A DNA stretch of 64,000 nucleotides from Eledone cirrhosa (GCA_964016885.1 OZ024754.1:34472001-34536000), one strand, 5' to 3'. Positions 1,406 to 43,535 are shown, numbered from the stretch's first letter. A program made the numbers and translations. Notes: generated by a model from the letters alone, not told the origin.

Positions 1406-1506
1406 ATATAAATGTTTATAACTGATTCAAAGCACTCGACATGTTTTCTGGAGTATAATATTCAATGATATTAAGTAAATGGAAACTATATTTATAAAAC
1501 CATACT

Positions 1507-1567
1507 TATTCTATTATATATATTTCAAGGGTACCAAAACTTTGGTACGCTCTCATCAGATAAAATA
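1507..1567 (-). ncRNA. Minimal type I hammerhead ribozyme motif (inverted copy)
   Basis: Reverse complement of the 1638-1698 motif. Confidence 0.75.
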
Positions 1568-1637
1568 CTATCCAGGAAAAACTTGAACTGTTAAGATCTT
1601 CTTCCTGGATATGTCAATATTTATAAAACAAACTTTG

Positions 1638-1698
1638 TATTTTATCTGATGAGAGCGTACCAAAGTTTTGGTACCCTTGAAATATATATAATAGAATA
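1638..1698 (+). ncRNA. Minimal type I hammerhead ribozyme motif
   Basis: TATTTTAT-CTGATGA-[GAGCGTACCAAA/TTTGGTACCCTT]-GAAA-TATATA-TA^ATAGAATA: stem I, stem II, 1-bp stem III with palindromic loop. Confidence 0.75.
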
Positions 1699-1778
1699 AA
1701 TATGGTTTTATAAATATAGTTTCTATTTCATCATCATCATCATCATCATCATTTTACGTCCGCTTTTCCCTGCTTGCA

Positions 1779-1827
<49 letters not shown>

Positions 1828-1900
1828 CTACATCTATGAGTAGGTATGTGTATATATGCATGTGTGTATGTGTATGTATATTGTATATATATATATATTG

Positions 1901-2325
1901 TATATGTATGTATATGTTTGTATATTTTATATGTATATCTGGATATATCTACGTATGTGTATATCTACGTATGTGCATATATATATATATATATATGTCT
2001 GTATGTATGTGTATTATATTTGTATATTTGTAGGTATATATATGTTTGTAGGGATGCATGGATGGATGTATATATCTGTATACATCTTATTAGAGAAAAA
2101 AATCCATTATCTCTAATAAGATGTATACAGATATAGAGATATATACACCCATCCATCCTTGCATCCATACAAACATATATATACCTACAAATATACAAAT
2201 ATAATGTACGTATACATACATACAGACATGTATATATGCACATGACTACACACACTCATAGATATACACATACGTAGATATATCCAGATATACATATAAA
2301 ATATACAAACATATACATACATATA
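1901..2325. repeat. Fold-back inverted duplication of low-complexity sequence
   Basis: Arms ~1901-2096 and 2110-2325 are reverse complements (e.g. ATCTGTATACATCTTATTAGAGA / TCTCTAATAAGATGTATACAGAT) around a 13-bp loop. Confidence 0.85.
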
Positions 2326-2620
2326 TGAACACATATATGTATGTGTATATATGTATATGTGTGTGTATATATGTATGTGTGTATATATAGGTGTATATAT
2401 GTGTGTGTATGCCTCAATACAAACATGCTTTTTATGTTCCTTCCTCTTCTCACTTTCTATTTTTCTATTTCATCTTTTATTCCTCATTCTATCTTCTGAT
2501 AAAGGAATAGTGTCTGAAACATAAATACCCTTTTTCTACTATATCAAATGTTAAACTAATATATTTCTTCATTGTAATTGTACTGTGTTGTTCGCTTTGT
2601 TTTTTCCTTTTACATTTTGC

Positions 2621-2651
<31 letters not shown>

Positions 2652-2652
2652 A

Positions 2653-2860
2653 GAAAAAGTATGACCCCGACGGCAGAGCTCAAGCCGTTTCGACGGCTAT
2701 TTCTGGACTAAATTAGAATTTTAGTCCAGAAATAGCTGTCGAAAGGCTTGAGCTCTGCTGTCGGGGTCATACTTTTTCCTATTTCCCACTCTACTACCAT
2801 AAGTATTGAGTACTCTGGTGTGTTATGGTCCATCTGGTTCCTTACAACAATTCCTTTGTT
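2653..2860. mobile_element. Palindromic element family B, short copy with only the GAAA/stem III/GUC half of the hammerhead
   Basis: ~60-bp inverted arms at 2653-2712 and 2720-2778. The tail 2780-2860 is homologous to the reverse complement of 34765-34845. Flanked by (TA)n. Confidence 0.7.
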
Positions 2861-2928
2861 ATATATATATATATATATATGTATGTATATGAATTATAAG
2901 AATCAAAGAACTGTTCAAAACATTTTTA

Positions 2929-2975
2929 TGCTTACAACTGTTTCCTCCAAACCGAGGTTTGGATTCTTCGGAGCA
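2929..2975 (-). ncRNA. Minimal hammerhead-like motif, CCGAAGA core variant
   Basis: Minus strand reads TGCT-CCGAAGA-A-[TCCAAACC/GGTTTGGA]-G-GAAA-CAGTTG-TA^AGCA. Confidence 0.55.
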
Positions 2976-3557
2976 ATTTATTATTGAATGAACACTTATA
3001 TGACCTCCTTTTCACCCAAGAGACATACAGATACATATGCAAATATTGTGGGTCAACATTCATTACAGCATTTAGTGATGTTATTACATTGAGCTATTTA
3101 ACTTACTGGTAATAAGGTAGTAGTATATTACTGCCTACCACTATTTAGGGTTTATAAAAATATATATAACTACAAAAGGTTTTTGTATTTGCATAACCAT
3201 AAATAGTATAATCAATACTATGTATGTATATATATATAATTATGTGTATGTATAAGCAGGACCCTTCAGTTTGTGTCAAAAGACCCTACAACTTCTCCTC
3301 TGCATGCAATATGACCGTATGTAAGTAGAATAGTGACCCCTCATCCTGTCTAGGTGGTCTGTAGCCCTGCTTCAATACTGACTTAGTCTATATAGATCTG
3401 TCCAACCCTTGCTAGCAACAAAAGCAGATGTTAGATGATGATGATGTATATCTGTAATGCTGGAAACATGATAAAATGGAGTGGTTGACAATGTACCTGT
3501 AATGTTATTTCAGATACGATGTTATGTTATTACAGATATAATATTATGTTATTACAG

Positions 3558-3709
3558 ATACAATGTACATTTGCACAGAAGATGCTTTCCCAACCAAACG
3601 GTTCACCCAGTTGATTGAAACATGGCGACAAAAAGGAATTTGGAAGAATCTTGCAGGGGGCCATCTTTATCCGGGTGACCATGTTTACATAGAACACGTC
3701 ACAGATGTA
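3558..3709 (+). CDS. XRCC3: XRCC3 (RAD51 paralog) internal coding exon
   Basis: ttacAG acceptor (3556-3557) and GTGAGT donor (3710). Translates TMYICTEDAFPTKRFTQL...HVYIEHVTDV, matching the XRCC3 motifs YICTEDAFP-KR--QL and IFIEHVADV as I recall them. Confidence 0.93.
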
Positions 3710-4911
3710 GTGAGTAAACAGTTATACACTGTTAACCATTTCGATGATGATGATATATATACATACCTGAACACACACACAAGGCTCAAAAACTTTATAA
3801 ATACATTAACACAGATGTAACAATTAAAATATCTTTGTGTGTGAGAGTATGAATAGACATTTGTATGTGCTTAGCTTTCAACATTTGATGTGTTTGAGTG
3901 TGTGTGTGTGTGTGTATTTGTTTCTCTGACCCTTTCCATTCTCATTTGAACAACCTCCTTGCTAATTCTCAATTACTACAGACTTTGTTAAAAAAAATAA
4001 AGAAACTGATCATCAATTCGGTTTGAAGCTATTTTTAACTAAAGTTAAAGGCAAAAAAAAAGCTAGGGATTGTATTATATACAAGCACATATATTTTAAA
4101 TATAAAATCACTACCTATGATTGTTAAATATTTTTGAAAAAATATCAAGATTTTGGAAGGATTAAATAATATAACTCATTTTCTAATTATTAAGGTGGTT
4201 TGGGGGACATAACTTACTGAAGAATCTTACATAAAAAAATTTTTTTAAGGTTTTTAGATAAATATAAATACTTTAAAACCAACCATATATAGTATCATAG
4301 AACCAAGAATGGTTTCGGGTGATTTAGTATAAAACAGATTTTAACTTCTGTAAGAGCTAGCTATGGTTCTCATTGCTCAGAAGATAATACAATGTTCTTG
4401 ACTTAGTCTAATTATTTCTCCATTCCTTAAGAACAAAAGAGTATTATGCCAAGTCAAATGAAATCATTAATAGTTATTCATTTGAAATTCCAAGACTGAT
4501 TACTTTTATTAATCAACTAAGAAAAAACAAAATCACTTAACACAGACATCACTGAGGAGTTAAGAAGTTCACTTCACAACCACATGGCTTCAAGTTCAGT
4601 CCCACTGTTTCTTCTACTATAGCCTCAGGTTGACTAATGCTTTGTGAGTGGAATTTGGTTGACAGTGACTGTGCCTATCATATATATATACAGAGTGAAA
4701 CCTTGCTTCGTGAATTTAATTCGTTCCTATGGCCCTTACTGTTTATATATTTCCTCTAACAGTTCAACAAAAAGAAATCAATAGAATAGGTGCCAGACAT
4801 GAAAAAAGTAAATAACTTTGGTGGATATGACCAACTAATTTCCTTCAAGGCTGTGCCCCAGCATGGTCACAATCTAATGACTGAAACCACAACTCTATGT
4901 GTTCTCACAGT

Positions 4912-5522
4912 ATCCTTCTACTACACACATGAAACTGTTAACCCTATTCTTTCTTCTACTACACACATGAAACTGTTAACCCTATTCTTTCTTCTACTGC
5001 ATACATAAGACTATTAACCCTATTCTTTCTTCTACTACACACATGAAACTGTTAACCCTATTCTATCTTCTACTACACACATGCAACTGTTAACCGTATT
5101 CTTTCTTCTACTGCATACATAAGACTATTAACCCTATTCTTTCTTCTACTACGCACATTAAACTGTTAACCCTATTCTTTCTTCTACTACACACATGAAA
5201 CTGTTGACCCTATTCTTTCTTCTACTACACACATGAAACTGTTAACCCTATTCTTTCTTCTACTACACACATGAAACTGTTGACCCTATTCTATCTTTTT
5301 TACTACACACATGAAACTGTTAACCCTATTCTATCTTCTACTACACACATGAAACTGTTGACCCTATTCTTTCTTCTACTACACACATGAAACTGTTAAC
5401 CCTATTCTTTCTTCTACTGTATACATAAGACTATTAACCCTATTCTATCTTCTACTACTGTTAACCCTATTCTATCTTCTACTGTATACATGAAATTGTT
5501 AACCCTATTCTATTTCTACTAC
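4912..5522 (+). repeat. 38-bp intronic minisatellite (~16 units)
   Basis: Unit CTACACACATGAAACTGTTAACCCTATTCTTTCTTCTA with variants; ends ~35 nt upstream of the XRCC3 acceptor. Confidence 0.9.
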
Positions 5523-5558
5523 TTACTTGAAAGTCTTAATTTTTATGTTTTTCTGCAG

Positions 5559-5771
5559 GAAAACCTTATTGTGTGTCTTGAAAGAAAATTGCCCGTTCTA
5601 ATAAAAAGAAGAAAGATCAAACTTATAGTTTTGGATTCTGTGGCTGCTTTGTTTCGTTCAGAATATGCCCTTGAAGATACACTGCTGCGTTCAAAACATT
5701 TGCATTCCATTGCTAAAGAACTACACCATATAAGCATGTTTTACAATATACCTGTAGTATGTGTCAATCAG
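5559..5771 (+). CDS. XRCC3: XRCC3 internal coding exon with Walker B motif
   Basis: tttttctgcAG acceptor and GTGAGC donor, phase 0 at both ends. Translates ENLIVCLERKLPVLIKRRKIKLIVLDSVAALFRSEY...PVVCVNQ (RecA/RAD51-family LIVLDS Walker B and NQ motif). Confidence 0.95.
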
Positions 5772-5989
5772 GTGAGCAGGGATTATTGATTTTTTTTTTT
5801 TTTCCAGGTTCAGTTTTGTGTTATATCATCATCATCATAATCATCATCATCATCACCATCATTATCATCGCCATCATTATCATCTCCATCATTTTACATT
5901 TGTTTTCTGTGCTGACCTGGGATGTGAACTATGTCCTGTTCAAATATTCTATCTTGTTATGGTTTCTACAACTGGATGTTCTTCCTATC

Positions 5990-6335
5990 ACCAACTACTT
6001 TACAGAGTGTACTGGATTTATTTTATGATATCAACACCACCACTTTACAGAATGCATTGAATGCATTTTACCATGGCACCATAACTATCTCTTTACAGAA
6101 TGTATTGGGTGCATTTTATCATGGTACTATCACTTCACAGAATGTCCTCGGTGTATTTTATAGCATCAGCACTACCACTTCACAGAGTGTATTGGGTGTG
6201 TTTTATCATGGCACTATCACTAACACTTTACAGAATGCACTGGGTGTATATTATCATGGCATCAGCACTACAACTTCACAGAGTGTACTGGGTGTATTTT
6301 ATCATGGCACCATCGCTAACACTTTACAGAATGCA
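5990..6335 (+). repeat. Degenerate ~45-bp tandem repeat resembling the RTE/SINE tail subrepeat
   Basis: Repeated ACAGA(G/A)TG(T/C)A(C/T)TGGGTG(T/C)ATTTTATCATGGCAC; follows the TTTCTACAACTGGATG tail motif. Confidence 0.7.
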
Positions 6336-6589
6336 CAGAAATAGGCAAAAATCTAAACCCCATTTATAAGCCAAGGCACATTATGTTTAGATGGTGCGGT
6401 TTTGAAATTCTCATGAGTGGACAATGTATTTATGAAGTTTTGATATTTAAAATGTTTTAAGTGTCATTTAGAGTATAGTTTTTGTTTCACAATTCCATTA
6501 TGTAATGATTTTTTACCAATTTCCGACCATTTTGTTGGCTATATTTATTCAAAACACATAAAAAACAATAAGAAATCTGGATTTCATAT

Positions 6590-6745
6590 TGAAAGTAAAA
6601 CCGGTATGATATTCACCTCCAAAGTGAAACTGGTGTAATATTCACTTCCAAAGTGAAACAGGTGTAATATTCACCTCCAAAGTGAAACCGGTGTAATATT
6701 TACCTTCAAAGTGAAACTGGTATAATATTTACCTCCAAAGCAAAA
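6590..6745 (+). repeat. 29-bp tandem repeat (~5 units)
   Basis: AAAGTGAAACCGGTGTAATATTCACCTCC repeated with substitutions. Confidence 0.85.
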
Positions 6746-7968
6746 ATCTTTTAGTACCTCATGTATGTAGAATTTTGAAATTGGTGAAAATTGGCAAAAT
6801 ATTGACCTTGAATATGTCACATTTTTACCATTGAATTTTTAAAAAAAATTTGTTATCACATATTTTGCAGCTTATATATGAGTGTATATGGTATATTTTG
6901 TAGAATAACTGAGGTTTTGTGAGACAATATTTTTCAAAATGTGGACTCATTGAATGTCAGGTGATTTCTATGCGACCTTCCAGGATAAAAGCCATCCCCA
7001 AACCCTAATACCTTATCCACTTAGCCAGCTTCTACTATATAATACATATAAGCATTTGTTTGATTGTTTCCTTCTTTCTTTTCTCATTAAACTAAATGCA
7101 CTCCAATTGAAAACAGTTTCAGAACTGTCATTTAACACAATTCCTATGTTATCACTATCAGCAAACTACTTCAACCTTATTTTATACTCCAGAAACAATC
7201 AACTTTACAAATAGATTTTTTTTTTTACATGCAATAACACTTAGATTAGCCAAACAGCTGCCTACACACATTAACATATAAACTCACATGAGTGAGTTAC
7301 CAACACAATTTACCAAATTCTCAAGCAGACAACAAAGTTACCCCGCACCAAAAAAAAAAAAAAAAAAAAAAATTCTCAGAGTAACCTATATTGGTATATA
7401 ACTTCAACATATCTCTTAACAGACACCTTTCTTACATATAGTTGTGAGAAGATTCAACTTACATACACTTCATTGCTTTACATAACAGCAAATTAAGCTG
7501 ATGGAATTTCCTTTGAATCCCGACCCCACCCTTCAACTCCCAGTCCCCCATCCCCCATACTTCCCCACTTACATGTTTTATTAACTCTTAACTTCTTATG
7601 ATTTAGCAGAAAATGTCTAAAACCAGGTTTGTTAATTCAACTGTTTATAGTATCTTTACTTGGAGACAGATCATTGTGAAAATTTCCTGTAAACTAAAGT
7701 AAAAACATACTGCTGTTTTGTACTTGTCAAGAGTGTCATGCTAATGTAATTTCCTGTGAAACAGGTGTGGCTGTGTGGTTAAGAAGTTTGTTTAACAACC
7801 ATTTGCTTTCAAGTACTCTCCCACCATACAGTACCTTGTGTAAATCTCTTCTACTATAGGCTTGGGCCAAATAATACTTTGTGAGTGAAATTTAGTAAAT
7901 GGAGATTGTAAGTTAGCCCATCAAGTGTATCCCGCTCGTCCCCTCAATCCATTTTATTTCTCATTATT

Positions 7969-8004
7969 TCTTCTAATGAAGGACTAGCGTCCGAAACGTT
8001 AAGA
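7969..8004 (+). ncRNA. Hammerhead motif family C, core mutated (CTAATGA)
   Basis: TCTT-CTAATGA-A-GGAC-TAGC-GTCC-GAAA-CG-TT^AAGA. Confidence 0.5.
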
Positions 8005-18548: not shown

Positions 18549-20299
18549 GCTAGGGATACAATAGTAGGTGTTTTCATGACATGTGAAATGGAGGTTATAG
18601 CTAGGGATACAATAGTAGGTGTTTTCATGACATGTGAAATGGAGGTTATAGCTAGGGATACAATAGTAGGTGTTTTCATGACATGTGAAATGGAGGTTAT
18701 AAACTAGGGATACAATAGTAGGTGTTTTCATGACATGTGAAATGGAGGTTATAGCTAGGGATACAATAGTAGGTGTTTTCATGACATGTGAAATGGAGGT
18801 TATAGCTAGGGATACAATAGTAGGTGTTTTCATGACATGTGAAATGGAGGTTATAAACTAGGGATACAATAGTAGGTGTTTTCATGACATGTGAAATGGA
18901 GGTTATAGCTAGGGATATAATAGTAGGTGTTTTCATGACATGTGAAATGGAGGTTATAGCTAGGGATACAATAGTAGGTGTTTTCATGACATGTGAAATG
19001 GAGGTTATAAACTAGGGATACAATAGTAGGTGTTTTCATGACATGTGAAATGGAGGTTATAGCTAGGGATACAATAGTAGGTGTTTTCATGACATGTGAA
19101 ATGGAGGTTATAAACTAGGGATACAATAGTAGGTGTTTTCATGACATGTGAAATGGAGGTTATAGCTAGGGATATAATAGTAGGTGTTTTCATGACATGT
19201 GAAATGGAGGTTATAAACTAGGGATACAATAGTAGGTGTTTTCATGACATGTGAAATGGAGGTTATAAACTAGGGATACAATAGTAGGTGTTTTCATGAC
19301 ATGTGAAATGGAGGTTATAGCTAGGGATACAATAGTAGGTGTTTTCATGACATGTGAAATGGAGGTTATAGCTAGGGATACAATAGTAGGTGTTTTCATG
19401 ACATGTGAAATGGAGGTTATAAACTAGGGATACAATAGTAGGTGTTTTCATGACATGTGAAATGGAGGTTATAGCTAGGGATATAATAGTAGGTGTTTTC
19501 ATGACATGTGAAATGGAGGTTATAAACTAGGGATACAATAGTAGGTGTTTTCATGACATGTGAAATGGAGGTTATAAACTAGGGATACAATAGTAGGTGT
19601 TTTCATGACATGTGAAATGGAGGTTATAAACTAGGGATACAATAGTAGGTGTTTTCATGACATGCGAAATGGAGGTTATAGCTAGGGATACAATAGTAGG
19701 TGTTTTCATGACATGTGAAATGGAGGTTATAGCTAGGGATATAATAGTAGGTGTTTTCATGACATGCGAAATGGAGGTTATAGCTAGGGATACAATAGTA
19801 GGTGTTTTCATGACATGTGAAATGGAGGTTATAGCTAGGGATATAATAGTAGGTGTTTTCATGACATGTGAAATGGAGGTTATAAACTAGGGATACAATA
19901 GTAGGTGTTTTCATGACATGTGAAATGGAGGTTATAGCTAGGGATATAATAGTAGGTGTTTTCATGACATGTGAAATGGAGGTTATAGCTAGGGATATAA
20001 TAGGTGTTTTCATGACATGTGAAATGGAGGTTATAGCTAGGGATACAATAGTAGGTGTTTTCATGACATGTGAAATGGAGGTTATAGCTAGGGATATAAT
20101 AGTAGGTGTTTTCATGACATGTGAAATGGAGGTTATAGCTAGGGATACAATAGTAGGTGTTTTCATGACATGTGAAATGGAGGTTATAAACTAGGGATAC
20201 AATAGTAGGTGTTTTCATGACATGTGAAATGGAGGTTATAGCTAGGGATATAATAGTAGGTGTTTTCATGACATGTGAAATGGAGGTTATAAACTAGGG
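18549..20299 (+). repeat. 51/52-bp minisatellite (~34 units)
   Basis: Unit GCTAGGGATACAATAGTAGGTGTTTTCATGACATGTGAAATGGAGGTTATA with G/AA and C/T variants; no spacers. Confidence 0.97.
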
Positions 20300-24584: not shown

Positions 24585-24615
<31 letters not shown>

Positions 24616-24673
24616 GTAGAAGTTATATTTAATTTGTTGGGATACAACAAGCAAATATTTTTATAACTGATAT

Positions 24674-24899
24674 AATAATAATAATAATGAAATTATTGTG
24701 TAAAGTGCTCAGGTGCACTACAACTCGTCAATATAGTACATAGAATAATACACAAATGTCAGGGAAGTACATGTGTGTATGTGTTAGCTGTTCTGTTGGC
24801 GGATCTCGGGAAACATGGAGGTCTTAAAGGATGCAGTGTCTCGACAGCTAACAACTGATGCAGGTAGTTTGTTCCATGCTTCAGCAACTCTGAGCGTGA
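24674..24899 (-). mobile_element. CR1-group LINE 3' end fragment nested in a family A element tail
   Basis: Near-identical to 28881-29115, with an (AAT)n terminus. Confidence 0.85.
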
Positions 24900-24934
24900 A
24901 ATATAAAGCACTCAACAAATTTTTGGAGTAAAAA

Positions 24935-25290
24935 TACAATATAGTAACAAATGGAAACTATATTTATTTCATTATACATATTTCAAGGACACCAAAGCAA
25001 ATTATGGTGTGCTTTCATCAGATAAAATATAATATAGATCAGTTTTATAAACAATTACTGACATACCCTTAAAGAATACGACCATGTTGGTTGGAAGCTG
25101 CCGGATAGTCTCCCGGGAGCTTCCAACTGACATGGTCGTATTCTTTAAGGGTATGTCAGTAATTGTTTATAAAACTGATCTATATTATATTTTATCTGAT
25201 GAAAGCACACCATAATTTGCTTTGGTATCCTTGAAATATGTATAATGAAATAAATATGGTTTTATAAATATAGTTTCCATTTGTTAATAT

Positions 25291-25296
<6 letters not shown>
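24935..25296. mobile_element. Palindromic double-hammerhead element, family A copy 2
   Basis: ~165-180-bp inverted arms around ~25108. HHR on + at 25188-25252 (CTGATGA..GAAA-TATGTA-TA^ATGAAATA) and on - at 24965-25029. Confidence 0.75.
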
Positions 25297-25335
<39 letters not shown>

Positions 25336-28879: not shown

Positions 28880-30681
28880 TAATAATAATAATAATGAAAT
28901 TATTGTGTAAAGTGCTCAGGTGCACTACAACTCGTCAAAGGTGTATGTATAGTACATAGAATAATACACAAATATCAGGGAAGTACATGTGTGTATGTGT
29001 TAGCTGTAGTGTTGGCGGATCTCGGGAAGCATGGAGGCCTTAAAGGATGCAGTGTCTCGACAGCTAACAACTGATGCAGGTAGTTTGTTCCATGCTTCAG
29101 CAACTCTGAGCGTGACAAAATGTTTCCGAAAGTCATGGGAACTGTGCTGTTTTCTTACTTTGTGGGCGTGTCCACGTGTGTTAGACACATGGAAATCAAA
29201 AAGGTACTCAGGGTTGTTGTTGGCAACATGGTTAACAATTTTGTGGGTGTTTACCAAGTCAGTTGCCAGGCGTCGGAGCTTCAATGAATCCATGCCCAGG
29301 GAAGCAAGTCGCCCAGGGTATGGTAGATGCCTGATGGAGGGTATTCGCTTGGTTGCACGTCTCTGAACAGTTTCCAGGCGGTCAATGTCCTGAGCAAGAT
29401 AGGGGTTCCAGACTGGTGATGCAAATTCTAAGTGTGGTCGCACCATAGCCATGTACAGCCTTAAATAGATATCTGGAGAGCGGCTGACAAAGGTCTTGCT
29501 GAGTGATGCTAAGACACCCTCGGCCCTCTTGACACCCTTTAGAGACGTGCTTCGTCCAACGCAAATCGCTGCTGACCATAATGCCCAGGTCACGTTCACA
29601 AGAAGACTTCTTGATATTAGTGCTGTGGAGGGAGTATGTGGATGCTGGGTTTTTACTCCCAAAATGCATGGTGGTGCACTTGTCCACAGCTAGCTTGAGT
29701 TGCCAGTCTGAGATCCATTGTTGCATTGTGTCCAGGTCAGACTGCAAGCAAGATCTATAGTGTTCAGGATCTGTCCTTTTTATCTCAAGGTACAGCTTGA
29801 TGTCGTCTGCGTACTTTAGTACTGTGGCATTCTTTAAGTTGGCATCTATGTCATTAATATATGCCACAAACAAAAGGGGGCCAAGAACAGATCCCTGTGG
29901 TACACCAGATGACATCTCATATGGTGAGGAATGCTGTCCCAGAACCGTGACTACCTCTCTTCGACTGAGAATAAAGGACTTCAACCAGTTAAAAAGATCA
30001 TCCTTCACACGCATTGCAGAGAGTTTTACCATAAGCCTTTTGTGTGGCACAGAATTGAAGGCTTTCGCAAAGTCAAGGTAAACAACATCCACCCATGAGC
30101 CGCCATCAGTGATCCGGGTGATGTCCTCAAGAAACTCAATAAGTTGATCACAGCAGCTGGAGTTGGGGATAAATCCAAATTGCGAGGGCCGGATAAGACT
30201 GTGAGAGCTCCAGAAGTTCCAAAGTGTTTCTCTGACACAGGATTCCATCAGTTTGGCGATGCAACTAGTAAGACTGACTGGACGATAGTTCACAGGTGAT
30301 GTGCGGTCACCCTTTTTGAACAGAGGAATGACACTGGCAGTTTTCCACTGTTCTGGAGTAGCACTGTTGTTCAGACAGAATTGGAAGAAGCGTGATAACT
30401 GGTGCAGAAGGAAGTACCCACCACGTTTTAGAAGCAGGTACGTAACACCATTAAGACCAGGAGAGGCATGGTTGCGTTTATTTTTTAGGTGACGTTGCAG
30501 CATTGCAGGTGTAAATTCCATGGTTGTAATAGAGTCCGGTGTCATAGGTGGTGGAGATGGTACACTTTGGTCTTCAATAGTGAAAATGCCTGCATAGCAT
30601 TCAGCAATGAGCCCTGCGCATTCCTTGGGGTCGTCAGTATGATTGACTAAATGAAGATGGTGGCCCATCATGGCTGCAGTC
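28880..30681 (-). mobile_element. 5'-truncated CR1-group LINE, RT domain with one frameshift
   Basis: ORFs 29382-30671 and 29000-29662: NYRPVSLTS, QFGF, YLDFAKAF, SGVPQGSVLGPLLF, KYADD, VRPHLEFASPVWNPY, WNKLP; (ATT)n tail. Confidence 0.93.
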
Positions 30682-31718: not shown

Positions 31719-34190
31719 ATGAAAAGGAGAAATGTAGTAAAAGTGGATGGTGTAGTGCAGTTGCATGTAGTTGAGTGGATGTAGCGATGGAAGGAATTGG
31801 CTTGTGTTTGTTGTCGTTCATTTGAGCGTGCCAGAGGTTGTAGTACTAAAGTTGTTGACTTGCTGGGTGATTATGCATCAGGTAAAGATTATCCCATTTA
31901 TAAGTTCTGTGAAGAAAATGCTGAGGAATGAACAAATAAAACATGGTTGCTACATAAAGAAGTTTTATTAAGAAAATAGCTTACTTCGAAGCTATTGTCT
32001 ATAAGACAGGTAAACAACAAAGAACTGAGTGAATTGTGTGAATGTAGTAATAATCTGCCCAGATGCATGAACTAATCTTTTATCGAAGTAGTCTAACCCT
32101 GTCAACTGGGTTGGAGTGTTTGGTTAAACTCTACATCTCTCTACTGCTTCAGCAACTCAAAATATATCCTCATTTTCTGAGAAACCAGAGTGGAATGACT
32201 TAGAGAAAAACTTATTTCATTTAATCTCAAGTTTGCCAGTCTCTTCAGACCACTGGCGCCATCATCATCATCAACATCGTTTAACGTCCATCTTCCACGC
32301 TTGCATGGGTTTGGACGGGAGTTTTCCCACTTGAGGCAAGAGTGGTTGTCTTGCTCGCATAGGACTGTCTGGCGCGTTTTCTACGGCTGGATGCCCTTCC
32401 TAACACCAACCACGTTTACAGTGTGGACTGGGAGGTTTTTACCATGTTACCTACACGGCCACATTACAGCGTGGACTGTCTGGCGGGTTTTCTACAGCTG
32501 GATGCCCTTCCTAACACCAACCACATTTACAGTGTGGGACTGGGAGGTTTTTACCGTGTTGCCTACACGGCCACATTACAGTGTGGACTGTGTGTTTTTT
32601 TGTCGTGACACCTACACGACCTCATTTGTTTCGGACTGGATGTTGTGGTACTAACATAACTTTACATTGAAAGAGGTGGTGTGGATGGAGTGGAGGTAGT
32701 GGGACGGGGGTGTATTTTTGTTAGAGGTGCCTACTGACTGTAGTAGGTTTCACTTTGTACTTAGGTAAGGCGGGTCTTCTGTATTACTGTGTAGCGCCAA
32801 AGATCTCGGTCCAGTGACATTGTCTTGGAGAGGTGTAAGTGTGTGAGGTCGAAATTTATCAAGTCGTCCCAGGTTTTTCTGGGTCTGCCTACTCCGTGGC
32901 TGCCGTCTATTTTTATTGCCCTGCACTTTTTTATACAGCTGTCGTCTTTCATGCGCATCACGTGACCATACCAACGTAGTCTTCTCTCGAGTAAACAACA
33001 TCTGATCCCTCTTATTTCTAATTTTTCCCTTAGTTCGTTTATGCTTTGCCGTTCACGTATATTACTATTACACATCCAGCGGAGCATGTAAGCTTCGTTC
33101 CTCTCCAGTCTGCGTGTATCCTCTACACACAATACCCAGGTCTCACTGCCATGTAACATTGCTGTTCGTATGCAGGCATCATACAGCCTGCCTTTCATTT
33201 TTAGAGAGAACCCTTTAGCGGCTAATAGTGGTATAAGCTCTCTGAACTTTTTCCATCCAGTTCTGACTCTAGCTACTGTACTTTCAGAGCACCCTCTACC
33301 ACTGCTGATTTTGTCACCCAAGTAACGGAAGGTGTCCACTATTTCTATAGAACCATCTGTGCAATGGAATGAGCTAGTATTCTGTGGGCACTTGCTGCTA
33401 CTTATTGCACCAGAGCACCGGCCACATATACAATCTATGTTCTTAGTTAGCTTACCTGTGATCCCACTACATCTTTTATGCACCCATACTTTGCATTTGG
33501 GACATAAAATGGAATTTCTACCTACTCCTTTCCTACACACTGAATATGGCCATTTCCCGGATGGGACCGGTGCCCTATTTTCCTTCCTACAAACTAGCAC
33601 TTTAGTCTTAGACAGGTTAATTTTAAGGCCTTTTGATTCTAGGCCAATCCGAAATAAAGAGAAACAGCTCTGCCGTGTCATTTGGAGGTCAAGTTTTTGG
33701 TGGCCACTTAATAGACTGAATGAAACCCTATTGCATAGAGTATCAAATTACTGCTGCAGTGTTGCCATATATTATACACTCAGTATATATATATATACTT
33801 ATATAACTATTAATCAGTGCTGTCCGCAGATGTCAATATGAAAGTGTTAAAGTGTAAACTTGATATCAACACAATTTACATATAGAGGAGATATCTGGAG
33901 AAAGCTATTACATAATGCACGTTATCAGCTATCAACTGAAGAATAGATTAACTTACTTGCAATCTGGATTTACAAAGAATATTTATATTTAATAGGTTTT
34001 TGCAATATACCGCTAGCAGCTATAGACTTGAAAGGGTTAACTTATGAATATTATGGACAATATGACTCCACTAGCAGCTGTAAAGAGGAAAATGTTGAGT
34101 TTTTGCAGTATGAAAGCTTCATTAATTCCAACATTTTGCTGGAAATATTGTCATACGAAACAGGAGGAATTATTATTATTTCACCCAACA
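31719..34190 (+). pseudogene. Unidentified decayed coding sequence split by an RTE insertion
   Basis: Protein-like frames with scattered stops on both sides of the RTE. Joining at GCCA restores ...SSDHWR|QSEIKRNSSAVSFGG. Confidence 0.35.
32261..33642 (-). mobile_element. 5'-truncated RTE-clade LINE
   Basis: ORF 32761-33681 C-terminal region (GLKINLSKTK, FRYLG, MLHGSETW, RRLRWYGHVMR, GRPRKTW); (TGA)n tail. Confidence 0.92.
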
Positions 34191-35700: not shown

Positions 35701-36309
35701 ACAACCCTTATTAAGGATGTATCATAGAAATATTAAGTCAATCACAGTCCTTTTTTGTGTTTTTTAATTGCTTAGTCATACTGAATTTCCTTAAGGATTA
35801 TGTTAAAGGTACACATTCCTGTGGACATTAACTCCGTGAGTTGGCTGCTCAGTTGATCAAACAACTGGAACATTCATTGTTGAAACCAATAGAGGTCTAT
35901 TAAAGTTTAGTACTCTAGGAGCCATGACATACCTGTTTTTTTCTTTTTTCTTTTTTGTTTGGTAAATCCTAATGTCCAGTTAAAATGGATTAGTTGGTGA
36001 CTCATGTCAACTTTTGCCATAATTCTTCCATACAACTGTCAGTGAGTCAATCATCACCATAGCTCTGACTTTCTCCGTGCTTTCTTGAATAGTTGCCAAA
36101 ACAGAACTTCCTATTTATGGTCCATCTTCAACTCTTCCTTGTCTTTTTGCCAATAAAAACTTCAGTCTGCCATAAAACTCACCCCAATGCCCTCTCTCAC
36201 TTTAACATTTTTTTCCATGTTCTACAGATTCATTTTGTATTTTATGTAATTTTACACAAAATTTCATTGTGAAAAATTGTTTGTTATTTTGTTTATGATT
36301 TCAAAGGAG

Positions 36310-37150
36310 GGTGAGAGCGAGCGAGAGAGATAGATCTGGTATGACAAGGGCAAACTGTTTGAATGAGGAAGTGGGAGAAATTATTGTAGAGTTGGGCGGA
36401 ATTAAGGAAAAGGGAAACAGATATATACAGAGATTGTTGAATATGGAGAATGAATGGGATGGCAACATAAAGAGCAATCCAATTCTCAGATCAACTATGG
36501 AGATAACTGAAGAACCATTGAGAAAGATGATAGTGGAAGAGCAGGAGAGCTAATAGTGGGATGTTTGGATGTGAAAAGGATGACAGATTTGTAGGTTGAA
36601 GCTGAAAGAAAACTGCATTCCAGTGAATTGGAAGTTGAGTACTTTCATCCCTCTGTACTGTGATTCTTGAGAATATGGTTTATATAAAGCAATTAAGTTA
36701 TTAGACCATTGAATGAAGGTATTGGAAAGAGTGTTAGAGAATAGGAAAAAGTGAAGATTGATGAAATGCAGTTTGGATTTGTGCCGGGAAGATGCCATTT
36801 TTATTGTGAATGAATATTTTTATGGTGAGGATAATATATGTGAAAGTTTGTACAGTTGTAAGGCCAAAGGATGAAAATAGCAATAGGCAGGTTTGAAGTG
36901 AAGGTTAGAGTACAATCAGAGATGAGGATTAAGCCCACTATTATTTGTAGTTGTGATAGAAGTACTAACCTAAAGTATAAAGATGGTTTACAATGGAAAT
37001 TGTTATTCACAGATGACCTGGTGTTAACAGCAATGAGTATGGAGCAACTAAAGAAGATGAATAGGTGGAAGGAATATATGGAGGCAAAAGGTATTAAGGT
37101 GAATATTGGAAAGATCAACTTTGTCCTTAATGTAAATGGAAGACAAAGAA
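36310..37150 (+). mobile_element. Highly decayed RTE RT remnant
   Basis: Remnants IKLLDH.MKVLERVLE, IDEMQFGFVPG, WKLLFTDDLVL, MEAKGIKVN. Confidence 0.7.
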
Positions 37151-38769
37151 TAGACAACAAATTATCAAATTATTAGTATATTTTATCCTTTGATTAATGG
37201 CAGTGTGTTGTGTTCAGGACCAAGACACAGAAGTTATGAAAAGTTCAATTCCTTGTTAAAAAGAAGAATCAGCTTTTGTAAACAAAGGCAGTACAATTAC
37301 CTCTTTAGCATTTACATTACTCTATATTTACTATTGTATTTTCACAGTAAAGGCTTTATCTTACATAATTATCTCACATAATATCGAATCTACGAGATTT
37401 TGATGTTATTTATATTGAGAAGAATACCTTAATGTAGGTATGAGCAGCCAGTTACAGCCAGTTTGAACAGAAGGAGGTGAGAGCGTTCTGGCCGGATACA
37501 GCCGGTTTAAACTGCTGAGTGTTTAATTGGTTTGCAGTGTTCAGTTCTTATTTTCTCTTTCCATTGTCATTTCCTTTGTGAGGTTCAGCATCCTCAGATC
37601 TGCTTTTACCACTTTGTCTATGTTTTCCTCTACAACATCTTCCTTCGTCTTAAAATCCTGACACTTCATTACCTAATTGTCATTATCCATATGTATCACA
37701 AGTCCATACCATCACAATCCTCTCTCTTGCTCTCTACATCAGTTCTTTTTAACTGTAGTTTTTCTACTAATTTATTTGTTTCGTTGATTATGCACACTAA
37801 CATTACACATCTAACTGAGCATGCATGCTTAATTTGTTTTCATTCAATGTCCATATCTCATTTTGTACACATCTATCATACAATCTACCCTTCATTAGAG
37901 ATATACCAACACAAGCATCATACAATCTACCCTTCATTCAGAGATATACTGACAAATAAAAATAAAATGAAAGTCTTGAGTCATGTCCAAATGATCCAAT
38001 GCATTAGAGAATTTAGAATATATTTTATATTTTCAATAATTGCTTCTACTTTTGGCACAAGGCCAGCAATTACCCAGTACATTACTGGTACTTTATTTTA
38101 TCGACCTCTGTATGGATGAAAGGCAAAGTTAACCTCGGCGGGATTTGAACTCAGATCGTAAAGGGACGTAACTATGCTGGAAAGCATATCCGACCCTCTA
38201 CCGATACTATTTTATATTTTCAATAATGTTAGTCTGAAAATAACATCAAAATAATCAAGTGCTTGTGCCATAATAAAATGCACTCATTACGTTTTATCAT
38301 TCTTTAAAGTGTTAGTGATGTTGTCATGACAAAATGTACCTAGTACACTCTGTAAATAATTAGTGTAAGGTGGTGAATGTTAGGAAGGGTATTCAGCCAT
38401 AGAAACCATGCCAGATATGAAACATATGAGCACAATGAGGTGTTCCTGAGCCATCTAATCTCAGACTGTGACAACACAGCCAACCCAAGCCAGCATGGAA
38501 AGTAGATGTAAAATGATGACAATGATGATGATGAAACCAAATAGAATGTACTAATACCATGATTGCACTGAAAGTGATCTAACAAGAATTCCTTCGGAGA
38601 AATGAAATAGAGGATGTGACTTTAGTTCTTGAGTACAATCCAGAAATAAAATAACAATGCCAAGAATAACAGACAGCTTTTGGTTCCACCATATTCCTTA
38701 AACATTAAACATTAAAGAATTCTCTGAAAAGACACCAATGGCATCATATATATGTATAAATGTGTGTGT

Positions 38770-39165
38770 GTGTGTGTGAATATGTCTGTGTATGTATTAC
38801 ATGTGTATGTGTGAATATAAATGTCTGTGTATTACATGTGTGATTGTGTGAATATAAATGTCTGTGTGTGTATTACATGTGTGTGTGTGTGAATATAAAT
38901 GGCTGTATATGTATTACGTGTATGTGTGAATATAAATGTCTGTGTATGTATTACGCGTGTGTGTGTGAATATAAATGGCTGTGTATGTATTTTGTGTGTG
39001 TGTGTGTGAATATAAATGGCTGTGTATGTATTACGTGTATGTGTGAATATAAATGTCTGTGTATGTATTACGCGTGTGTGTGAATATAAATGGCTGTGTA
39101 TGTTTTGTGTGTGTGTATGTGTGAATATAAATGTCTGTATGTATTACGTGTGTGTGTGTGAATGC
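38770..39165 (+). repeat. ~35-40-bp TG-based minisatellite
   Basis: GTGAATATAAATG(T/G)CTGTGTATGTATTAC repeated. Confidence 0.85.
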
Positions 39166-39346
39166 ATAAATGTGTGTAGATAAGTGAAGATTCATGGCTT
39201 CATGGTTAGGATGTTTGGCTCATGATTGCAAGGTCATTAGTTCGATTCTTAGTAGTGTATTGAATCCTATGTATGTTTATATATAAATATATATATATAA
39301 TATCAATGATATTAATAAATGGAAACTATATTTATAAAACCATATT

Positions 39347-39409
39347 TATTTTATTATATATATTTCAAGGGTACCAAAAAACTTTGGTACGCTCTCATCA
39401 GATAAAATA
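39347..39409 (-). ncRNA. Minimal hammerhead motif, family A copy 3 (single arm)
   Basis: Minus: TATTTTAT-CTGATGA-GAGCGTACCAAA..TTTGGTACCCTT-GAAA-TATATA-TA^ATAAAATA, perfect 8-bp stem I. Confidence 0.75.
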
Positions 39410-39515
39410 CAAAATTAGTTTTATAAATAGTGACATATCCGAAAAAAACAGACCTTATCGGTTTAGGTTCCGTTTGGATATTTATATACATACATGTATG
39501 TACGTGTGTGCACAC

Positions 39516-39569
<54 letters not shown>

Positions 39570-40297
39570 AGTAAATATTGAAAATCAATTGAAGCTAACA
39601 GGATATTTTGTCTAGAAACTAGAACTGGGGTGGGGGGTGGGGACACATTTCATTGGATGTTTGGAGAAAAAAAAGAGAGAAAGAAAGATAAAAGAAAAGA
39701 TGATAGTTTGTGACTTTAAGAATGGCAGGGATAGAAGCAAATGAGGAAAAGGAAGAGACACATTATTGACCTCGAATATGAGACAGAAATAACTAATGTA
39801 AAACTGATCCAACACAACTGTTTACAGTCTTCATTGTCTCTTTTTACACACTTATACACAAACTTACACACACACATATATATATATATATATACAAAAT
39901 CAACAAACAAGAGGATGCATTAGCATATCATCATCATCATCATTTAACATCTATCTTCTACGCTAGCATTGGTTAGACGGGAATTGTCCTACTTGAGGCA
40001 AGATTGATCAGGTGACCGTGTCTCGCTCATATAGGACTGTATCTAGCAGGTTTTCTATGGCTGGATGCCCTTCCTAACACCAACCACATTTACAGTGTGG
40101 ACTGGGAGCCTTTTTACCGTGTCTCCTACACGACCACTTTACAGCGTGGACTGGGTGCTTATTTGTTGTGACACCTACACAACCTCTTTAGTTTGGACTG
40201 GATGTTGTGGTACCAACATAACTTTACGGAGAAAGGGTGGTGTTGGTGGGGGTGGGAGGATGGAGTAGGGGTAGTGGGTTGGGGTGTATATTTGGTT

Positions 40298-41200
40298 ATC
40301 ATCATCATCACCATTTAATGTCTATTTTTTCATGCTAGTATAGGTTAGATGAGTTGTCTCGTTTGCGGCAAGCCAGATCAGATGATCGTGTCCTGCTCAC
40401 TCAGAACCAACCACATTTACTGTGTCGACTGGGTGCTTTTTGTTGTGTTACCTCCCTGACCATTTTACAATATTAACTGGGCGCTGGAGTTGATAGTGGG
40501 GGAGGTACATGGGGAGTGGAGAAGTAGATCTAGGGTGGGGGTGTAAAGACATGAATGAAGGGTGGGGGCGTTAGGATGTGGGAGGTGAATGGAAAGAGGT
40601 TGGGGAAAGTAGTGCATAGAAGATATATGTTTCAATCTGTGCACATGGGGAGGTGGGTATTCTGTATTACTGCATAACACCAAAGATCTCGATCTTTTGT
40701 CATCGCCTTCAAGAGATGCAATTGTGCAAGTTCAGCTTTTATCACCTCATCCAAAGTCTTCCTACACCATAACTTACATCAACTTTGAGCTCCTTGCACC
40801 TTTTTATACAGTTGTCATCTTTCATATGCATCACATGTCCATACCAACACAATCTCCTCTCTTGTAAACTGCATCTGATCCCTCTAATGCCCAATTTCAC
40901 TCTCAGTTCAATTATGCTTTGTTGTTCTTGTATATTACTGTTATACATCCATTGAAGCTTGCCACTTCATTTCTTTCCAATTTTTTTGCAGGTTCTCTGC
41001 ATACAGCACCCAGGTCTCACTAATATGCAGCATTGCTGTTTGTATACACGTATCATACAATCTGCCCTTCATTTTGAGGGAAAAACCTTTTGTATTTAAC
41101 AGTGGTAGTTGCTCTGGCAACAGTACCTTCAGAACACCCTAATTTGGTTGCCCAGGTAACAGAAACTATCAACTACTTCTACTACACTCTCTGGGCATTT
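40298..41200 (-). mobile_element. Decayed RTE 3' portion
   Basis: ORF 40742-40948 ELRVKLGIRGIRCSLQERRLCWYGHVMHM; RTE tail. An adjacent tail copy lies at ~39927-40297. Confidence 0.8.
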
Positions 41201-41223
41201 AAAGGTGCTAGTATTGTTTCTTT

Positions 41224-41321
<98 letters not shown>

Positions 41322-41916
41322 CCTTTGGAATAACATCAAATTTAGGTCTCTCTCCAAATCAATTCACTATGGTGCCTTGCATATGGATTACATATAGATT
41401 GTCTAATGTGTCATCTGAAGACACCATATTAAGGATTACATCAGGTTATCATGATGAAAGCACTTCACCACAGAAATATGTATTAAGGCTATTATGTCGT
41501 CTTTATGTTGTATTAAAATCCGTCTTGTGCTACGCATATGATACCATATGGTAGAATACACATGACATTGAGTGCTCTTTTCTTATTACACCATCATTTT
41601 CTAAAACGCAGCCCCTGCTACCAATTAGGAAACACCCTGTAACACAAACATATATATGTGTATGTATGTATGTGTGTGTGTATGTAATCTTCAGTTGTGT
41701 CAAAGATAAAATGCACTCAGTAGAGTCAGGACCATATGTAAACAAGATCAAGCCCCCAGCCCCTCTAAGGTCTGTAGCTCTGCTTAAGTACTGACTTACC
41801 AGCAAGGAAAATGAATGTTAAGTGTTGGTGATGATGATGATACATGCATACATAAATACATACATATTTATAAATATTGCGCTGACTACCAATATATATA
41901 TATATATATATATATA

Positions 41917-43185
41917 CAGCGTGCAGACGATATTTGTTCGCAAGATTACTGTCTAGGAAAAAATAACACAATAGTTTTATTTTTTAAGATATATTTATCA
42001 ACCTTGGGTCAGTTTGTCTTCATGACTTGTTCTTTCGATCTCACTCGATAAACTCGCCATTGGCTTTGATGACGGCCTCAGAACCGGCTACAGGCCTTCG
42101 TCACTGTACCCAGACTTAGGCCCCTAAAGACACTTGTGATCCTGGCCTTCAGATCGTCTTTCGTATTGCAGCTAGATCTGTTGGTGTCTCGTTCCATTGC
42201 GTCCAACACAAAGAAGTCAAGGAGGTTGCAGTCAGGCAAGCTGGGAGGCCAGATGTCAGGTGAAGTGTGGTCGACGAAGTTCTTTGACAGCCAGGCTTGG
42301 GTCTTTCGGCTGGTATGGCAGGGTGATGAGTTTTGCTGCCACATGTATGGCCTACCTGCAGCTACCTGGTCAGAATGCAGATGTAGTCATTGGTGTTCAG
42401 CTTGAGGCCCTTAGGGAAGAAGTGAGGTGGCAAGATGTCACCTTGACTGCTGACGACACCTAAGACCAATGTTGTCGCTGGAAACTTTGTCTGCATGACT
42501 GGGAATGTCTTTGGATGAGACAGTGAGCCACCTGTTGTTCTGGGAGTTGATCTTCTGGTCTTGGTAGAAGTTTTTCTCGTCGGAGAAAAACCACAGCATG
42601 TCTGGCTCCAGTGGGTGTTTCAACTTGTTGATCAGCTTCTTTGCGTGCTTCAGTCGCTTTTCTTGCATCGCCTTTAACAGAAATTGTCCTTTCCTCATCT
42701 TGTATGAAACGTAGCGAATGTCTTTATGTACCACCAGCCTAATAAGCTGTCCATCCACGCCTTTCTCCCTTGCAATGGCACGTATTGACTTGCTAGGTTC
42801 ATTGTTGATGATATCTTGAACTTCAGCGACAAACTCAGGCGTTCTGAAGGCGTCAGATCGTCGATCATGTGTTTTCCTCTCTGATGTTGCTTCATAGTCG
42901 AATCCTGAATCTTCCAATTCCTTTCTGACCTTTTCCACCATTCTCCTGCTGACGCTGAGAAAGTCTGAAATTTCCTTATTTGTCCTCCCGGCACGGATTC
43001 CAAGAAGAACTCTGTGTCTCTTCCACAAATTTGGAGGTTCAAAATTATTCATAATCAATTATTCTGAAAATAAATAATGGAAATATAGTCACTGTTTTTA
43101 TGAAGACAAGAGTGACAACAGAAGTAAAAAAAATTGGCAAAAAATTAGCAGTTGAAAATTGTGAACAAATATCGTCCACACCCTG
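41917..43185 (-). mobile_element. Tc1/mariner element, DD37D (maT-like), frameshifted transposase
   Basis: TIRs CAGCGTGCAGACGATATTTGTTCGCAA / CAGGGTGTGGACGATATTTGTTCACAA with TA on both sides. ORFs 42438-43058 (FSDEK) and 42078-42344 (QQN..SPCH...PDCNLLD; 37 residues between the second and third catalytic positions). Confidence 0.9.
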
Positions 43186-43202
43186 TATATCATCATCATA
43201 TC

Positions 43203-43529
43203 TTTATAACAACATATTTGTTTTATTATACATGTTTCAAGGATACTAGATTATAGTATGCTTTCTTCAGATAAAATACAATATTTGGTGTCTGGGTATG
43301 TCAACATCTTGACACCAAATATTGTATTTTATCTGAAGAAAGCATACTATGATCTAGTATCCTTGAAATATGTATAATAAAATAAATATGTCGTTATAAA
43401 ATTATTTTCCATTTATTAATATTATTAATATTATAATACTCCAGATAAAATTTAGCTGTAGAGTGCTTCATAACTGTTATAAACTTAATTCTATTGAATA
43501 TTCATCAACAAAGCATATAACTCATTGTT

Positions 43530-43535
<6 letters not shown>
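43203..43535. mobile_element. Palindromic double-hammerhead element, family A copy 4
   Basis: 90-bp arms at 43203-43292 and 43311-43400. HHR + at 43325-43384 (CTGAAGA..GAAA-TATGTA-TA^ATAAAATA) and - at 43219-43278; tail runs into (TA)n. Confidence 0.75.

Follow-up and report, generated by a model that had tools for sequence, protein, structure and literature searches.

Four short elements with hammerhead-like motifs in a 64,000-nucleotide stretch of the Eledone cirrhosa genome (GCA_964016885.1 OZ024754.1:34472001-34536000; hereafter the window) raise the question of what kind of element they belong to and how their inverted arms arise. The hammerhead motifs at these four sites are real: scanning both strands of the window returned exactly seven motifs resembling a type I hammerhead, whereas 50 Markov controls averaged 0.02 and never exceeded 1. 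Type I features are present: the core CUGANGA, GAAA, UH, stems I and II and a palindromic loop III. On the plus strand the scan predicts cuts after 1690 (element 1), 25244 (element 2) and 43376 (element 4), the positions named in the initial annotation, and on the minus strand after 1515, 24973, 39355 and 43227. A palindromic loop III was described earlier for each motif, but the minus-strand motif of element 4 carries the non-palindromic CATGTA. The best 150 of the 345 Rfam matches for the window include no hammerhead family, and neither do the 56 matches for L239, a locus where the element-1 motif occurs twice in exact form.

Three long inverted repeats had been described, and they do form three divergent hammerhead pairs, with a single arm at 39.3-39.5 kb; the repeats are asymmetric, because the true arm boundaries lie further out than first given. 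With pLTR coordinates counted from the first base of stem I as 0, the long-end arm of element 1 spans 1406..1568 on the minus strand (-1 to about +159; hammerhead 1507-1567, first hairpin motif 1434-1454). The remainder of its tail (1026..1068, minus strand), which stops in a TA tract at the fixed long end, is separated from it by a later insertion (1069..1405, unstranded), an apparently SINE-like common repeat with a (CAT)n end that lies outside the family and has 93-95% matches at several other loci. The second arm of element 1 (1567..1729, plus strand; hammerhead 1638-1698) begins at the fixed 5' start (ACTATCC, about -80); a (CAT)n repeat truncates it at about +95, leaving its own 3' end out of view. 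The long-end arm of element 2 (24901..25110, minus strand; hammerhead 24965-25029, first hairpin motif 24910-24929) runs from the 5' start, with a G preceding ACTATCC, to about +144, and its tail, split by a later insertion of ~230 bp (24670-24900), resumes at 24611..24669 on the same strand and stops in (TA)n, at the fixed long end. Elements 1 and 2 thus both have a left arm that continues beyond later insertions, to ~1026 and ~24611 respectively. The short-end arm of element 2 (25111..25298, plus strand; about -75 to +112, hammerhead 25188-25252) also ends at (TA)n, and this is the only element with both arm ends visible in the window.

Element 3 is a single short-end arm (39301..39480, minus strand; about -78 to +112, hammerhead 39347-39409) flanked by TA-rich microsatellites. 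In element 4 a Tc1/mariner-like element and a (CAT)n run interrupt the left arm (43199..43292, minus strand; about -33 to +85, hammerhead 43219-43278); the 3' end of this arm lies out of view, and its remainder was not found within 36,000-43,300. The right, long-end arm of this element (43293..43533, plus strand; hammerhead 43325-43384, first hairpin motif 43438-43464) reaches the fixed long end at (TA)n at ~43533, beyond the boundary drawn earlier. The sequences previously taken for spacers between arms belong to the arm itself, forming its 5' portion, and vary by subfamily.

No PLE ORF was found in the window by tblastn, in agreement with the initial annotation, and the genome has plenty of such ORFs. 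The autonomous Penelope-like element (PLE) sharing the arm, for which a search had been proposed, was found: the arm is the pLTR of a Hydra-clade element located elsewhere in the genome. The arm adjoins the ORF in L131, L168, L169, L177 and L242, with the ATG ~60 nt past the long end, and the exact element-1 motif stands at both ends of a 3.4-kb insertion containing the 3' half of the ORF (L239). The short-end arm of element 2 shares 94.6% identity over 186 nt with the 3' pLTR of the ORF-bearing copy L179. Direct pLTR pairs surround the ORF at L164, L166, L169 and L177, and the unit measures ~4 kb (3.5-4.3 kb between pLTR starts). L169, which also has an inverted pLTR pair at its 5' end, combines an open ORF with 99.5% identical pLTRs, suggesting that this copy was recently active. 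No normally positioned ORF turned up for the element-4 subfamily.

The single open ORF (742 aa) encodes a telomerase-like RT and a GIY-YIG endonuclease. Telomerase RTs were the best structural matches of the RT (3du5_A, E 9e-10; 9swo_A, Z 14.4), and residues 618-720 align with the catalytic domain of I-TevI (Z 9.7, rmsd 2.2, 88/92 residues). Residues Y622, Y635, G637, R646, H650 and E705 of the GIY-YIG domain are invariant across 80 sequences, and the Atlas lead for this endonuclease came with very high confidence. Sequence searches returned little: Pfam gave no significant family for the protein (one of 20 homologues matched RVT_1 weakly, under the cut-off), PHROGs one weak endonuclease match (E 0.0097) and the PDB sequence search 0 matches. 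The protein carries RWR at residue 37 (RWK in 56 and RWR in 18 of 80 homologues), SDKT at residue 117, with DKT replacing DKG (ADKT in 63, SDKT in 5), a CxCx5C linker (C601-C603-C609), and, flanking the conserved E and N, a CxxC (C699-C702-E705) and a CxH, here CRH at 726, that is present in 63/80 homologues. Its motifs, the (TA)n target and the pLTR hammerhead assign the element to the Hydra clade, the published alignment being compared by eye. An identification of the protein as Neptune was dropped; the published motif list indicates Hydra.

Since the same arm flanks an RT-endonuclease ORF, the elements are not the separate non-autonomous or retrozyme-like family suggested at first, whereas the proposed link to PLEs, inverted pLTRs and dimer-type hammerheads is supported. 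A non-autonomous retrozyme-like unit of ~290 nt, transcribed and copied alone, possibly as a ribozyme-made circle, could account for the large excess of stubs over ORFs, as seen in a pLTR depth tens of times that of the ORF in two runs of unknown kind, whose contigs carry no information on ends, strand or level, and for the few direct repeats that exist 287-360 bp apart. We consider it very unlikely, however, as the same subfamilies flank ORFs, no tandem arrays occurred in 90 sampled loci, the single 287-bp pair examined combines two different subfamilies, and the second hairpin motif lies outside the stub. Moreover, arms start at -80 and not at the cut site near +58, where no pile-up of breakpoints was seen with a pattern blind to junctions with A before the site; by hand count roughly 12-18 of 100 listed matches at the cut site had foreign flanks, and the others showed point or 2-base changes. 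Mosaic copies between subfamilies, a possible trace of ligation at the cut site, gave no signal (2/106 discordant).

The 19-base core has 20,686 exact matches in the genome. Copies were located by sequence patterns; after 14 overlapping or duplicate loci, one locus without profile match and the last of 100 listed sites had been dropped, 134 insertions consisted of 58 adjacent pairs and 76 arms without adjacent partner. Among the 58 pairs, 45 joined a short to a long arm, none was short-plus-short, one was long-plus-long (by eye it reads as short-plus-long) and 12 had an interrupted arm, so that the short-plus-long rule describes 45/46 classifiable pairs (p 7e-13 against 50%). Paired arms end at two fixed points, about +112 and +205, ~90-100 nt apart, and (TA)3+ is abutted by 93/96 short ends and 76/85 long ends (169/181 in total; background 11%). 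Two-ribozyme palindromes made up 19/87 insertions sampled in the first 34 Mb of one contig; adjacent two-ribozyme pairs were all divergent (34 of 134 insertions), with 1 convergent neighbour. Loci L206 and L207 share their build and may be one duplicated event. At 16 of the 49 junctions mapped, the stop of the long arm lies at +21 or later and the start of the short arm further upstream. Arms that seem not to overlap could also be produced by asymmetric deletions in a palindrome's centre.

A MITE moved by a DNA transposase would likewise have inverted arms and a TA target, a reading to which we assign a negligible chance. In a MITE the terminal inverted repeats are equal and the interior is fixed, whereas here the ends are unequal, centres and junctions vary, most insertions are single arms (76/134) and the arms are continuous with an RT ORF, a link that already refutes it; the rejection of a plain MITE in the initial annotation is thereby upheld. 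The palindromes are the debris of a known and abundant kind of retroelement, the Penelope type.

Just past each of the two end points the element has one copy of a small hairpin motif, ACTC/GCTC...GAGT/GAGC. Both copies were detected in 13/17 pLTR-ORF junctions, and in L170 the two motif blocks stand 90 nt apart, with 0/5000 shuffles matching as well. The stem of the first hairpin is nearly invariant at its own position (90 ACTC/GAGT, 1 GCTC/GAGC), and this hairpin is absent from some predicted folds.

At the opposite end many arms begin at one base (-80, the A of ACTATCC), and an additional G is frequent there. In 298 genomic matches the base immediately preceding ACTATCC is not that of the template, versus 13 at an internal control site, the two patterns being unmatched for copy number. 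By hand count this base was G in 42 of 100 listed matches (expected 21.6%, p 4e-6; p 0.012 once ~14 cases explained by the partner arm are removed), with an internal control for G that is small and not low (5/13). The template C at -81 was retained in 684 matches, and ~90 of the first 100 continue into the UTR, so that long copies need a template past -80, an objection to the dual-priming model set out below. Read from DNA junctions, position -80 is likely a capped transcription start.

We hold it highly probable that the elements are short pLTR insertions of the autonomous Hydra-clade PLE, and that their palindromes likely arise by dual priming at two sites of the sense RNA and back-to-back joining of the cDNAs. 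Both ends of a cut TA repeat would prime reverse transcription at two fixed sense-RNA sites, where the paired motifs may position two RT molecules, and the two resulting cDNAs, likely running to the capped front end of the element RNA (-80), would be joined back to back into a palindrome. Reverse transcription primed within the mRNA's first pLTR would yield stubs of 190-290 nt, and when primed further downstream it would yield long copies reaching the ORF; a two-ribozyme palindrome would form only if both cDNAs pass the hammerhead. A more specific version, whose chances we regard as evenly balanced, has tandem RNA hairpins setting two RT starts ~90 nt apart for a dimeric RT-endonuclease, with (TA)n break ends priming on capped sense RNA and run-off at the cap leaving thousands of strong-stop-like stubs.

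The same element could also acquire its inverted arm by fold-back, in which synthesis on an antisense template is self-primed; this route has been put forward for rotifer PLEs (PMC3846280). Junctions are indeed often located in or near a self-complementary 5' hairpin, the arms of 10/27 two-ribozyme pairs are identical over ~100 nt, and the long arm holds the entire short arm plus more in 5/49 pairs. Fold-back nevertheless seems unlikely to us: in the 16/49 junctions mentioned above neither arm can be the other's copy, because the short arm begins upstream of the point where the long arm stops; the second fixed end with its own motif is left without reason, and the excess of G speaks for a sense template with a cap. 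Over 27 pairs, the arms differ from each other by 2.7 changes on average, compared with 2.3 to the best other copy, which fits one RNA molecule as well as two.

Motif statistics were obtained from 243 distinct copies with a complete core. The stem II covariation described earlier holds between subfamilies (double changes at positions 2, 3, 5, 6 and 9), and the C.C mismatch is retained, position 4 being C.C in 218/243 copies and paired in 2. Across 18 representative copies, pairing held in 98.0% of cells, with changes on both sides at 5 pairs. Stem I has 8 bp, position 10.1-11.1 is A-U or G-U in 236/243 copies, and loop III is most frequently TATGTA (118), TATATA (92) or TGCGCA (8). The helix III 8-mer has weak predicted self-pairing (-2.2 to -3.2 kcal/mol), and unconstrained folding of the minimal motif did not produce the full hammerhead. 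In inserted copies the core mutates as fast as the flank (12/938 vs 32/2571); inserted ribozyme cores decay neutrally.

The initial annotation read these features as a possible selected palindromic RNA, a rod-like molecule or switch in which the antisense arm controls ribozyme cleavage. Uniformly divergent two-ribozyme pairs and a covarying stem II fit such a switch, which we nonetheless judge extremely improbable. The antisense half is always transcribed first, on either strand; the ribozyme fold inside the palindrome has a predicted cost of 74-86 kcal/mol, and stems I and II had probability 0.000 in 6/6 folded palindrome transcripts, so the hammerhead is predicted to be inactive there. Junctions vary from copy to copy, only 19/87 insertions have two ribozymes, and the cores decay neutrally. 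The covariation is therefore attributed to selection in active lineages and not on palindromes; the hammerhead is probably a dimer-type ribozyme maintained by selection in active elements. Fossils of A>G editing were not seen (A>G 10/3586, T>C 32/4838 sites). Extrapolated roughly from 19/87, the genome would contain a few thousand templates for long hairpins, which could be a source of dsRNA if transcribed.

If the more specific version of dual priming is true, the PLE tail and head-to-head inversion would represent programmed twin priming and not antisense self-priming, and the only role of the hammerhead may be to provide a longer or circular template for full-length copies. Among the papers listed by searches of the freely accessible literature, none was listed as proposing twin priming, a cap G or paired motifs for PLEs, and PMC8557442 was the only one on octopus pLTR hammerheads. 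The palindromes amount to many natural insertion products from a class of elements whose mechanism is described as still open (PMC8557442), with concrete testable features: the paired motif behind two starts, the fixed 5' start with its G, and the short-plus-long end rule.

As described in PMC8557442, the Hydra clade shares with the Eledone element the single ORF with RT and C-terminal GIY-YIG, the RWK/RWR, DKT, CxCx5C, CxxC and CxH motifs, the pLTR hammerhead, the (TA)n target and an inverted 5' copy with a one-sided tail, whereas the tail is ~90-100 nt here versus 30-40 and the unit ~4 kb versus <3 kb. The supplement of that paper includes Hydra-1_Obim, from an octopus, which has the SDKTNNLY motif in common with our element but another hammerhead and a protein clearly different by eye; two pLTR strings of the Eledone family were not found in this supplement, where line breaks may hide a match. 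The pLTR hammerheads of PLEs reported in PMC4209133 and PMC6765202 are likewise of type I with a very short palindromic helix III and a long stem II, and occur in many covarying subfamilies, mostly as single truncated copies. The published motifs have G-C at position 10.1-11.1 instead of A-U/G-U, and the fixed C.C mismatch and 8-bp stem I set the Eledone motifs apart, which are putative ribozymes; activity was low in PMC4209133. Inverted pLTRs and opposite-strand hammerhead pairs have already been published (PMC3846280, PMC4209133), the latter pairs ~100-700 bp apart (PMC4209133).

Animal non-LTR retrozymes (bioRxiv 10.64898/2026.07.22.740005) resemble our elements in their type I hammerhead, short non-coding copies and PLE origin, but are defined there as tandem repeats with one hammerhead per unit and have no ORF, whereas the Eledone arms are dispersed stubs, single or inverted, of an ORF-bearing element with which they are continuous. 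Rotifer Penelope elements (PMC3846280) show the same inverted pLTR, tail on one arm, junction palindrome and solo pLTRs; antisense self-priming is favoured there, while the junctions described here favour two primers on capped sense RNA. In Anolis Poseidon the PLE protein cuts and extends both strands in vitro (PMC11167929), and, as in the model for our element, two internal RT starts bracket the tail, the target is AT-rich and a dimer is predicted. Poseidon belongs to a different clade, and its RT starts lie inside the ORF, in one AC-rich stem-loop, whereas the proposed starts of the Eledone element precede the ATG, each with its own copy of the motif.

Our scan of both strands revealed seven type I hammerhead motifs in the window, all within the four sites of family A, the window's hammerhead-bearing arms (element 1, ~1026-1729; element 2, 24611-25298; the single arm of element 3, 39301-39480; element 4, 43199-43533), against a background of 0.02 motifs per Markov control, which confirms the four elements reported in the initial annotation. 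The stem, loop and cut-site details described there were also found, except that one loop reads CATGTA. The proposed covariation of stem II around a conserved C.C mismatch was borne out as well: the mismatch was retained in 218 of 243 distinct complete-core copies drawn from all fetched loci, and two-sided changes occurred at several stem II positions in this set. On 18 representatives 98.0% of cells were paired, versus 39-59% in slid controls, with double changes in five pairs; because these sequences are related, the shuffle counts of this test are not probabilities. Another family of hammerheads, in which loop III is TGCGCA and stem II is longer (genomic loci L163:1340-1610, L105:1999-2832 and L167:1651-1721), likewise makes back-to-back pairs, often beside family A copies.

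The 19-base core pattern had 20,686 exact matches in the 3.0 Gb genome (reversed control 0), the 45-base motif of element 1 had 689 and the 25-base pattern of element 4 had 29. A motif in the upstream continuation of some copies gave 862 matches, several as divergent pairs 2-7 kb apart which enclose an AT-rich UTR of ~1.4 kb and an ORF. Protein search of the genome, with 83 of 80,954 candidates scored, found at least 86 matches to this partner protein, many of them stop-free, and several of 20 ORF loci inspected read arm-ORF-UTR-arm in a single direction, the ATG lying ~60 nt past the long arm end. At locus L169, whose pseudo-LTRs (pLTRs) are 99.5% identical, an open ORF lies between an inverted arm pair on the 5' side and a short-end arm on the 3' side. 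The arm of element 2 is 94.6% identical to the pLTR of an ORF-bearing copy. The exact element 1 motif stands at both ends of locus L239, enclosing the 3' half of an ORF with 53% identity to the 742-aa product of L170. In the element 4 subfamily the only candidate for a partner ORF is one piece with 39-45% identity, located 3' of an interrupted arm.

The L170 protein was modelled confidently (pLDDT 89), with telomerase reverse transcriptases as top structural matches and an I-TevI-like domain predicted at residues 618-720; its only named close homologue is an Argonauta protein. Its motifs fit the published Hydra clade definition (PMC8557442); the supplement of that paper contains another, different octopus Hydra family. 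The window elements are thus almost certainly pLTR stubs of a Hydra-clade Penelope-like element (PLE). The PLE link of the earlier interpretation stands; a separate non-autonomous family is not supported, because the arm flanks an RT/endonuclease ORF. Within one family A insertion we also found an unrelated second Penelope-like ORF (L126:1933-5782), consisting of an 834-aa open frame and a partial copy in inverted orientation.

Numbered from the first base of stem I as 0, arms end at either ~+112 (short) or ~+205 (long), and TA repeats abut 169 of 181 arm ends of both kinds. We counted 134 insertions (87 through the first 99 core matches listed, 25 and 22 through two subfamily searches), of which 58 lie directly beside a divergent partner: 45 pairs were short plus long, none short plus short, one long plus long (short plus long when judged by eye) and 12 had an interrupted arm. 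Two hammerheads were present in 34 of the 58, including 19 within the 87 position-sampled insertions. Elements 1, 2 and 4 have one long-end arm each, only element 2 retains an intact short end among the paired elements, and the tails of elements 1 and 2 are interrupted by later insertions. The left arm of element 4 contains a presumably Tc1/mariner-like element (41912-43190) with terminal repeats that are 89% similar across 28 bases and a 206-aa transposase-like frame on the minus strand (43058-42441). Elsewhere the window holds a 51-bp minisatellite (18549-20299) repeated 34 times at 96% identity, a TA-rich microsatellite field of 6.5 kb (53903-60465) and minus-strand reverse transcriptase frame fragments (29003-30680, 32764-33747 and 62302-63753), which we take to be LINE-type by their translated motifs.

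In 16 of 49 mapped pair junctions the long arm ends at +21 or later and the short arm starts further upstream; such junctions cannot come from fold-back of one cDNA, though later central deletions could mimic some. Between the two arms at L044:690-760 (the L246 site) the 5'-terminal bases recur as several short repeats, each preceded by G, as if the cDNA end had repeatedly re-primed. The direct tandem at L245:1826-2301, two arms 287 bp apart from different subfamilies, is consistent with insertion into a TA tract left behind by an earlier copy.

Many arms begin with ACTATCC (-80). In one subfamily a non-template base immediately precedes this start at 298 places, versus 13 at an internal control site. 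The template C precedes it at 684 places; by hand count, ~90 of the first 100 listed extend into UTR sequence, and breaks in the bases immediately beyond are few. Among 49 distinct listed sites at which an arm borders (TA)n, 10 extend to the A of the start (hand count); G precedes the A in three of these and the template C in none. G stands in front of the start at 42 of 100 sites listed; a partner arm can account for ~14, and the excess without these has p 0.012. Because G already occurs in 5 of 13 cases at the internal control (three sharing one context), the extra-G argument for the 5' start is only suggestive. The octamer ATTTGCAT, ~70 nt upstream of the start in L003, L033, L034 and L239, recurs at a similar distance from -80 in several subfamilies, is absent from the L169/L170 type and may be part of a promoter.

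One copy of a motif follows just 3' of each fixed end, ACTC-loop-GAGT after the short and GCTC-loop-GAGC after the long. Both copies were detected in 13 of 17 pLTR-ORF junctions, and in L170 the similarity of the two blocks, spaced 90 nt, exceeds that in each of 5000 shuffles. We infer that the paired motifs would position the RT, and the stubs probably arise by twin priming on capped sense RNA, both ends of the cut TA repeat priming at two fixed sites. At pLTR-ORF junctions (e.g. L034, L131, L153) the pair CAGTTATAA / TTATAACTG is predicted, in most of six folds shown, to close a domain that contains the second motif together with the long start site.

The initial annotation had further proposed a possible self-cleavage switch. 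In whole palindromes the long hairpin is predicted to win by 74-86 kcal/mol on both strands, against a predicted cost of the ribozyme fold of 0.5-3.3 kcal/mol in single arms. The outward orientation of the arms means that, whichever strand is read, the antisense half comes first in the transcript. In 86 arms not selected by their core, 70 cores are intact and rare substitutions are as frequent in the core (12/938) as in the flank (32/2571; Fisher p 1.0), which argues that selection acts in active lineages rather than on inserted copies. A selected switch of this kind is therefore very improbable. Junction mapping and the matches listed at the predicted ribozyme cut site showed no pile-up of breakpoints there. 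Three of four measurable direct pairs exceed one unit, with 5' pLTR extensions of 164 nt, 179 nt and at least 600 nt; the template for these copies would have to be multimeric or circular, as proposed in PMC4209133.

Among the papers listed by our literature searches, we found none on the paired motif, on cap-ended stubs or on twin priming favoured over antisense self-priming. A similar GCTC...GAGC string is seen by eye towards the 3' terminus of an apparent Hydra consensus in the supplement of PMC8557442. The two marked RT start sites suggested here agree with the two internal starts demonstrated in vitro for another PLE (PMC11167929). Inverted pLTRs with a one-sided tail, shared by family A, are the standard PLE build (PMC8557442; PMC3846280; PMC8969392), and hammerhead pairs on opposite strands, also found here, have been reported 100-700 bp apart (PMC4209133). 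Family A is therefore not a new kind but another PLE of already known build.
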